Notes: a model not told the origin generated them from the sequence alone. Positions 42,245 to 42,617 are shown, numbered from the stretch's first letter. The stretch: DNA of 64,000 bases from a virus (IMGVR_UViG_3300045125_000064:100383-164382); one strand, 5' to 3'. Numbers and translations are program-made.

Positions 42245-42617
42245 TTTTATTCCTTCCCTTGCGTTTGCATAATGTCAAAAGCATTATTGTTCGCAAACAA
42301 AGGATTGTGAAAATGTGGGTTAAAATCCCTCAAGGAATAAAAAAACTTGTCCCTTCTTCTAAAAGCAGGAAAGCCTTGAGTGGCAAAATATTGGTGCAAA
42401 TCCAATAGGGACAAGCCAAATCCAGAACATAATCTGGAAAACAGTTTATCTATTCCTTCGACTAAATAATAAGAATCGCACCTTCTTTGCGATGATGTTG
42501 ATAACCAATTCAACAGGAATAGATAACAATAATCAATGTTTCTTCGTTCAACAAGCAGGACAAACCCAAGAACAGAGTGGGGAAGAAATTGCAACAGTGC
42601 AAGTCTGCAAAGAAACA
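42245..42617 (+). ncRNA. Unidentified structured ncRNA tract (four consecutive closed domains, one tRNA-like and ending in CCA)
   Basis: Closing helices 42245-55/42332-42, 42346-53/42408-15, 42446-57/42515-26 and 42537-44/42610-17; no credible + strand ORF. Confidence 0.55.

Follow-up and report, generated by a model that had tools for sequence, protein, structure and literature searches.

The window analysed here is a stretch of DNA from a large, uncultured phage, of 64,000 nucleotides (nt), bases 100383-164382 of the 172.9 kb IMG/VR record IMGVR_UViG_3300045125_000064 (estimated to be 76% complete, 34% G+C), in which nearly all genes lie on the + strand. ARAGORN identifies eight tRNA genes between 39 and 46 kb, all on that strand (Gly, Thr, Arg, Ser, one with an 8-nt anticodon loop, Leu, Pro and Glu), and between them lie small open reading frames (ORFs) and two HNH endonuclease genes. 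Downstream of tRNA-Ser(UGA), four further units, here called U1 to U4, tile positions 42245-42617 as self-contained RNA folds, and it is this tandem array that we describe (Table 1). A previous sequence-only reading had proposed closed, tRNA-sized RNA domains at this place that are not standard tRNAs. Their stems were recovered to the exact base, the inner hairpins that it named are all present in the minimum-free-energy folds, and neither ARAGORN nor the Rfam tRNA model calls any of the four as a tRNA.

Table 1. Features of the tRNA-Ser region and its surroundings, in window coordinates (bp, base pairs)
Feature	Position	Strand	Description
tRNA-Ser(UGA)	42102-42190	+	Canonical tRNA heading the array; ARAGORN; Rfam tRNA 48.9 bits; encoded G73-CCA
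Two trailer hairpins after the tRNA-Ser CCA	42191-42214; 42220-42238	+	AAACCCA/TGGGTTT; CAAGCA.../TGCTTG; fold z = -3.8
U1	42245-42342	+	11-bp closure, one linker nt, 4-bp D-position stem CCTT/AAGG bearing a long 6+7 bp hairpin
U1 closing arms	42245-55 / 42332-42	+	11 bp, perfect Watson-Crick
U2	42346-42418	+	Cloverleaf; 9-bp closure, D stem TCTT/AGGA, T arm ATTGG-TGCAAAT-CCAAT, then G-CCA
U2 closing arms	42346-54 / 42407-15	+	9 bp, perfect; then CCA 42416-18
Trailer hairpin after the U2 CCA	42421-42438	+	TCCAGA/TCTGGA; fold z = -3.6; mirrors the hairpin 3' of tRNA-Ser
U3	42446-42526	+	12-bp closure; D arm replaced by a 17-nt unstructured A-rich segment
U3 closing arms	42446-57 / 42515-26	+	12 bp, perfect
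U4	42537-42620	+	Cloverleaf; 8-bp closure, D stem GTTC/GGAC, long variable stretch; then A-CCG
U4 closing arms	42537-44 / 42610-17	+	8 bp, perfect
Stop-free frame antisense to the array	42247-42618	-	123 codons; judged spurious
Promoter	42647-42675	+	Sigma-70 type, TTGACA-17-TAGAAT with TG extension; 11/12 matches; strong; 30 nt past U4
Fifth unit, in the next transcription unit	43009-43094	+	9-bp closure (one G-U pair); T arm GTGG-TTCAATT-CCAC against the 3' closing strand
Closed unit after tRNA-Glu	46021-46111		8 Watson-Crick and 2 G-U pairs; fold z = -2.75; no T arm
Ro60 orthologue (TROVE and Ro60 vWA)	52033-53609	+	Pfam TROVE E = 6.5e-7; vWA_Ro60 E = 1.4e-18

Anatomy of the four units

All four units are built on the plan of a tRNA, with U3 as a variant that has an 8-nt loop. 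They share with canonical tRNAs (RF00005) the stack of an acceptor helix on a T arm, which in U1, U2 and U4 is 17 nt long, carries G53:C61, U54 and A58, and is set without a spacer on the closure. The T arm of U1 is GTGGG-TTAAAAT-CCCTC, directly against the 3' closing strand, while that of U4 (AACAG-TGCAAGT-CTGCA) is weakened to three of five pairs. In U3, the hairpin GTTGA-TAACCAAT-TCAAC abuts the 3' closing strand in the layout of a T arm, with a loop of 8 nt. The T loop of U2, TGCAAAT with G55, is also that of the phage's tRNA-Glu, and the corresponding loop of U4 is TGCAAGT; the G55 loop that U2 shares with tRNA-Glu is rare, occurring in only three of the tRNAs called by ARAGORN in the examined loci. 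The U1 loop TTAAAAT resembles the TTAAAGT of the phage's tRNA-Thr. Further likenesses are the 4-bp D stem with its 8-nt loop in U2 and U4, the strand shared with the cluster, and the G-CCA end of U2, which is followed by a hairpin in the same arrangement as in tRNA-Ser. The earlier description of U2 as tRNA-like is borne out by its cloverleaf, its T arm of tRNA geometry and this 3' end.

In both tRNA-Ser and U2 a small hairpin begins directly 3' of the CCA, possibly as a common signal for 3' processing. The encoded CCA is followed by AAACCC in tRNA-Ser and tRNA-Glu, and by AATCC in U2 (42191-42214, 42421-42438, 46008-46020).

Unlike canonical tRNAs, the units have closures of 8-12 bp, D loops that lack GG, and no functional anticodon arm. 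A usable arm (5-bp stem, 7-nt loop, U33, R37) is found in none of the four. U1 lacks it and carries a 13-bp hairpin on its D-position stem, and in U2 it is vestigial (GCC-TTGAGT-GGC, with 3 bp and a 6-nt loop). The U3 hairpin ATCGCA-CCTTCTT-TGCGAT does have a 7-nt loop, CCUUCUU, but with C33 and U37, and the arm in the anticodon position of U4, CCCA-AGAACAGAG-TGGG, has 4 bp and a 9-nt loop. Because these arms cannot decode, the units escape tRNA detection: ARAGORN made no tRNA call on U1-U4, even in its pseudogene mode, and RF00005 had no match at E <= 10 on 42195-43160 (966 nt).

Rfam was scanned with gathering thresholds across the whole window, and with E <= 10 for the intervals 38.5-47.5 kb, 47.4-56 kb and 42195-43160. 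Among the 4227 models, no family matches the units even at E <= 10; the scans returned only tRNAs and noise matches (snoRNA, drz-agam-1), and a tmRNA was found neither there nor by the tmRNA search of ARAGORN. The earlier inability to assign a family stands, with the models for GOLLD, ROOL, tmRNA, RNase P and Y RNA all without a match. These results bear on the suggestion, made in the sequence-only reading, of one large ornate non-coding RNA with several domains, of the GOLLD or ROOL kind. Phage tRNA regions are where GOLLD and ROOL often lie, and the 556-nt stretch 42095-42650, from tRNA-Ser to the next promoter, does fold better than its shuffles (z = -5.9). Within that fold, however, U1-U3 remain independent closed domains, there are no long-range helices joining the domains, and U2 has a CCA end of its own, so that together with the failed model searches we consider a single large RNA extremely unlikely. 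An undescribed class of element, as also proposed, gives way to a more familiar assignment: with all four on the tRNA plan, the units are best regarded as mimics of tRNA origin, a type of element already known from phages.

Other candidates at this place were rejected. For a mobile element with terminal inverted repeats, like a miniature inverted-repeat transposable element, further copies in the genome and a target-site duplication are both lacking, and the small + strand ORFs at 42235-42408 and 42492-42650 have neither a PHROG match nor a ribosome-binding site.

Folding, divergence and strand of the array

Compared with dinucleotide shuffles, U1, U2 and U3 each fold better than expected (z = -4.1, -2.6 and -5.9, with -26.1 kcal/mol for U1 and -23.0 kcal/mol for U3). 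On this check of folding energy the earlier proposal holds for three units and fails for U4 taken alone (z = -1.3). The 173 kb genome contains 94 perfect closures of at least 9 bp around 40-95 nt, versus about 67 in shuffles, and a shuffled genome is expected to yield about 5.6 closures of 11 bp or more. Given these frequencies, the tiling of three closures, 11, 9 and 12 bp long, within 282 nt is beyond chance. We also used a descriptor that calls for a T arm of tRNA geometry with a Watson-Crick closure of 8 bp or more following it without a gap; it picks out U1, U2 and U4, and gives three matches in 2.3 Mb of shuffled sequence searched on both strands.

U2 and U4 are paralogues, with a global alignment z of about 6 as compared with 0.7-3.9 for the other pairs of units. 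Their helix pairs were counted by script, helix by helix, as the MAFFT alignment was mis-registered at the 3' end. At the 19 helix positions, nine pairs are identical, eight show compensatory double changes (two in the acceptor helix, three in the D stem, one in the stem at the anticodon position and two in the T stem) and two are broken in U4. Since compensatory changes fall in all four helices, the cloverleaf was maintained while U2 and U4 diverged. An alignment of five units revealed no convincing common sequence beyond U2 and U4.

The closing helices are the most consistent part of the array: their pairs are perfect in 40 of 40 cases across the four units, while inner helices are mismatched or missing. 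In a set of 261 distinct ARAGORN tRNAs taken from 2.2 Mb of phage loci, perfect closing helices reach at most 9 bp with the flanks counted, and both U1 (11 bp) and U3 (12 bp) surpass them all. As their closures are longer than in any of these tRNAs, U1 and U3 have gained pairing, which decay could not bring about. The pattern may be read as selection for a closed and stable top-half fold, perhaps one that offsets the loss of the D/T tertiary core.

One possible explanation that requires no function is that the units are decaying tRNA pseudogenes, dead duplicates within the tRNA cluster that are at most excised as by-products. It would account for anticodon arms that are defective in all four units, each in a different manner, for the loss of the D arm in U3, and for the weakened T stem of U4 with its unremarkable fold. 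The failure to find homologues in phage loci or in the rest of the genome is in keeping with it, as are the odd tRNA-like sequences that also occur in the tRNA clusters of distant relatives. Decay does not, however, spare every closing pair while other helices become defective, nor does it extend the closures of U1 and U3 by 4-5 bp beyond a tRNA acceptor stem. U1 has moreover gained a well-formed 13-bp hairpin, and U2 retains its CCA and a perfect T stem (5-6 bp). On this evidence we judge the pseudogene explanation unlikely.

The + strand is favoured as the strand of the array. The units are oriented like all eight tRNAs, the T-loop and CCA features are found on this strand, and the + strand fold is slightly more stable for each unit. 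In addition, the D stems of U2 and U4 share, at one position, a G-U pair that would become an A-C mismatch on the minus strand. The opposite view, a minus-strand protein gene running from 42618 to 42247 (123 amino acids, GTG start, AAGGA four bases upstream) with incidental stems, has in its favour a stop-free frame nearly coextensive with the array and an 88-amino-acid product predicted there by a gene caller (P0019). Such frames are common, with 29 minus-strand stop-free stretches of at least 124 codons in the genome, and the codon score of this one (-0.04) is that of antisense frames (-0.06 +/- 0.10) rather than of + strand frames (+0.12 +/- 0.12). The product has no Pfam or PHROG match, and among 1.84 billion representative proteins it finds only its own record and a tandem-repeat artefact, an 11-of-24 match summed over about 20 repeats. 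The sequence-only reading had pointed to a conserved protein in this frame as evidence to look for against RNA genes; no homologue was found, and the codon score is antisense-like. Coding would also not yield four tiled, perfect inverted repeats of 8-12 bp with T-arm geometry, and we give a gene here next to no credence.

Because the promoter at 42647-42675 starts the next transcription unit, the array forms the 3' end of the tRNA-Ser unit. The closed unit that follows tRNA-Glu has the same placement, before a near-identical promoter at 46126-46154. The sequence-only reading had noted it as a similar closed unit, and it is indeed closed, but without a T arm. This repeated arrangement raises the possibility that the structures serve their neighbours, either in 3' protection or termination of the tRNA-Ser transcript, or as promoter and terminator of the HNH endonuclease gene that runs antisense. 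The minus strand has two terminator-like hairpins (42493-42475 and 42438-42421) and a promoter-like site (42311-42283). Promoter-like sites are not enriched, however, with 17 found versus 21.5 expected from shuffles, and no + strand terminator is predicted after U4. A single hairpin would suffice for such a role, which leaves four T-arm units and a CCA end unexplained, and the explanation appears very unlikely to us.

A proposed reading as non-decoding tRNA mimics

With moderate confidence, we interpret U1-U4 as a tandem array of four tRNA-derived, non-decoding small-RNA genes of tRNA-like form, which would be kept for their acceptor/T-arm fold and act as processed tRNA mimics. The anatomy, its statistical support, the strand and the paralogy of U2 and U4 are shown here, as is the lack of an explanation by coding or by a known family. 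In the model that we propose, each unit retains the 'top half' of a tRNA, an acceptor-type helix coaxially stacked on a T arm. This is the face of the molecule that RNase P, RNase Z, the CCA-adding enzyme and further proteins that bind tRNA recognise. The other half, with anticodon and D arms, is truncated in U2, distorted in U4, stripped of its D arm in U3 and exchanged for a long hairpin in U1. Host tRNA-processing enzymes could then cut the units from a polycistronic tRNA-Ser precursor, and stable RNAs of 70-100 nt would be expected to accumulate, that of U2 with a CCA end. These RNAs would be neither translation adaptors nor mere relics, and may bind or titrate a protein that recognises tRNA. 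They may also be processed decoys, as the sequence-only reading had suggested.

Several observations weigh against this interpretation. First, neither homologues in other genomes nor relatives close enough for between-genome covariation were found in any of the collections searched. In blastn against 50,697 phage records only tRNA-Ser was matched, to Aeromonas phages; the exact U2 pattern had no match in IMG/VR; an index of look-alike stretches had no entry for it; and blastn-short and nhmmer searches with the array as query, covering up to 2 Mb of phage loci and the remaining genome, gave nothing above chance. The lineage-specific protein of 446 amino acids encoded upstream has no relatives in IMG/VR or metagenome contigs, one half of the Ro60 gene has no match in IMG/VR, and the nearest Ro60 relative in a set of 5.8 billion proteins has 42% protein identity. 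The nearest NAMPT loci (IMG/VR, metagenome contigs) have 54-61% identity, which is too distant for use in RNA homology. Second, U4 by itself folds no better than shuffles, and the loss of two pairs from its T stem is decay-like. The compensatory changes between U2 and U4 could also date from a time when both were working tRNAs. Third, given what is established about RNase P and RNase Z, closures of 11-12 bp, in which leader and trailer pair, should obstruct these enzymes and not assist them. Finally, the assembly seems to carry frameshifts (split Ro60 and NADAR genes), possibly indel errors. As the case is built on a single metagenomic sequence, it is suggestive rather than established.

To our knowledge, small non-tRNA RNAs of phage tRNA clusters, such as RNAC and RNAD of phage T4, have gone unexplained for decades. 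In RNAC and RNAD (also species 1 and 2 RNAs) the 3' parts resemble tRNA, and maturation is by tRNA-processing enzymes. Like them, U1-U4 are small non-tRNA RNA genes within a phage tRNA cluster, and the location fits. Unlike them, the array comprises four tRNA-sized units, two with over-long closures, and shows no detectable sequence relation; no family model of RNAC and RNAD exists with which membership could be assessed. T4 transcribes the two small, stable RNAs, whose role is unknown, from its tRNA region along with the tRNAs (PMC3014915), and in Deinococcus radiodurans the RNAs Yrn1 and Yrn2 share one precursor with tRNA-Asp (PMC4201824); both are precedents for the reading proposed here.

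Phage tRNA clusters are usually taken as aids to codon usage only, and the array would be an unusually clear case of something other than tRNA within one. Four adjacent units, one paralogous pair with compensating changes and two over-long closures together suggest that the tRNA 'top half' was retained in its own right. Should the units be expressed, they would offer a handy system for finding what such mimics bind, with processing enzymes, host tRNA-directed defences and the phage's own Ro60 as candidates.

Ro60, Y RNAs and the wider tRNA cluster

The Ro60 orthologue, whose homologues are named 60 kDa SS-A/Ro, is encoded on the same strand as the array, which lies 9.5 kb upstream of its start (about 52033). 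The gene is spread over three frames, with ORFs at 52096-52935 and 52920-53609 and an N-terminal piece from 52033, and the shifts fall near 52140 and 52900. A NADAR-domain gene just upstream (51365-51818) is likewise split. Since this adjacent gene is split too, the frameshifts of Ro60 are possibly assembly errors, or else real disruptions. NAD-related genes (NAMPT; NUDIX plus cytidylyltransferase; NADAR) flank Ro60 and the tRNA cluster at 31185-34657 and 51365-53609. In two distantly related phage loci (L002 and L004, 10001-17700), PARG and a CTP-transferase-like gene are among the NAD-related genes that flank the Ro60/tRNA cluster.

Ro60 proteins bind Y RNAs, which in bacteria include the YrlA family (RF02553). 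As Ro60 is encoded downstream and a canonical YrlA was not found, a Y-RNA-like role of the array is possible. In this explanation U1-U4 would be non-canonical, Y-RNA-like partners of the phage Ro60, with the end helix binding the Ro60 ring and the tRNA-like part recruiting a second protein, in the manner of bacterial YrlA and Yrn1. A Thermus phage encodes two Y-like RNAs that its Ro60 binds (PMC12135203). In known Y RNAs the 5' and 3' ends pair into a closing stem; these RNAs have tRNA-like T arms, occur in tandem and can be co-transcribed with tRNAs (PMC4201824). The array resembles YrlA and Yrn1/Yrn2 in its end-to-end closing helices, its T arms, its tandem arrangement and its setting in a genome that encodes Ro60. 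Ro60 also lies inside or beside the tRNA cluster in L002, L004 and Myxococcus phage Mx1. RF02553 had no match at E <= 10 in sensitive scans of the window or in the whole 173 kb record, and canonical YrlA was likewise not found in L002 and L004, the nearest Ro60 phages, which leaves the Ro60 of this phage without a recognisable RNA partner.

The YrlA model does reach divergent phage versions, as three copies were found beside the Ro gene of Caulobacter phage CcrColossus (NC_019406.1). These tandem YrlA-like copies (3893-4006, 4091-4187 and 4395-4504; E = 1.8e-6 to 7e-3, below the gathering score) are interleaved with tRNA and lie upstream of the Ro gene, an arrangement that also speaks for a Y-RNA-like role. 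The first of the CcrColossus matches contains two annotated 'terminators', and one of the three shares sequence with the 3' part of the annotated tRNA-Gln.

The array itself departs from YrlA in several respects. YrlA has the order 5' stem, V, T arm, loop-closed acceptor stem, D arm and 3' stem, with a GNCGAAN(0-1)G motif near the 5' end (PMC4201824). In U1-U4 the modules follow the order of a tRNA instead of the permuted V-T-AS-D, with the T arm last and abutting the 3' closing strand. The Ro-binding motif GNCGAAN(0-1)G is missing from the + strand of 42245-42617, and its sole nearby match on that strand, at 43064, lies outside the array; in U3, only the minus strand carries GTCGAAGG. The closing helices are perfect, where Y-RNA stems contain a bulge or an internal loop, and the distance to Ro60 exceeds the 4 kb span that holds nearly all YrlA genes (PMC4201824). 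From the failed model, motif, order and stem comparisons it follows that U1-U4 are not members of YrlA. There is also a better-fitting candidate nearby, the fifth unit at 43009-43094, which contains GCCGAATG and with it a fit to the Ro-binding motif of bacterial Y RNAs. It has no Rfam YrlA match and only a weak tRNA-Sec alignment (20.6 bits), and because it combines the same build with GCCGAATG we regard it as a better Y-RNA candidate than U1-U4.

On balance, we find it doubtful that U1-U4 act as Y-RNA-like partners of Ro60. The broader proposal that U1-U4 and the fifth unit form a new, tRNA-ordered class of Y-like RNAs, serving Ro60 in a phage lineage that lacks YrlA, strikes us as improbable to a similar degree. 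If true, it would link a phage Ro60 ribonucleoprotein directly to the phage tRNA cluster.

Other elements of the tRNA cluster were noted in passing. The HNH endonuclease gene at 41371-41964 (-) is an antisense insertion between tRNA-Arg and tRNA-Ser; its stop codon and the 3' end of tRNA-Arg overlap. Another HNH gene, a small one, is found at 44188-44475 (+). For the tRNA with the 8-nt loop (43807-43885; Rfam tRNA 32 bits), ARAGORN gives the 4-base anticodon 'caaa'. In the related loci it gives 'taaa' in L004 (17800-17877) and a 2-base 'ta' in L002 (17665-17741). These tRNAs may read quadruplets or be otherwise unusual.

The array can finally be compared with the modules that lie between the tRNA genes of the distantly related Ro60 phages L002, L003 and L004. 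Like U1-U4, these are self-closing structured modules, some with a T-arm hairpin and compensatory changes in the closing helix. Unlike in U1-U4, their T arm is central and not beside the closure; nhmmer finds no similarity between the two, and U1-U4 lack the sequence GGATTACAT. In this phage, GGATTACAT occurs on the + strand only and in the tRNA region only, at 44700, 45870 and 46195, with variants GGGTTTACAT near 38957 and 45690. It is usually followed 35-45 nt on by a ACTTTTTGGCA-like sequence, and precedes tRNA-Gly, tRNA-Pro, tRNA-Glu and two ORFs. The same sequence is present five times each in the tRNA clusters of L002 (17400-18560) and L004 (18811-19781), inside closed inter-tRNA modules whose closing helices, GTAACAA/TTGTTAC versus ATAGTGA/TCACTAT, differ by compensatory changes. 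GGATTACAT looks like a lineage-wide signal or RNA module of tRNA clusters, and as a shared sequence it links clusters of the L002/L003/L004 type to the tRNA region of this phage.

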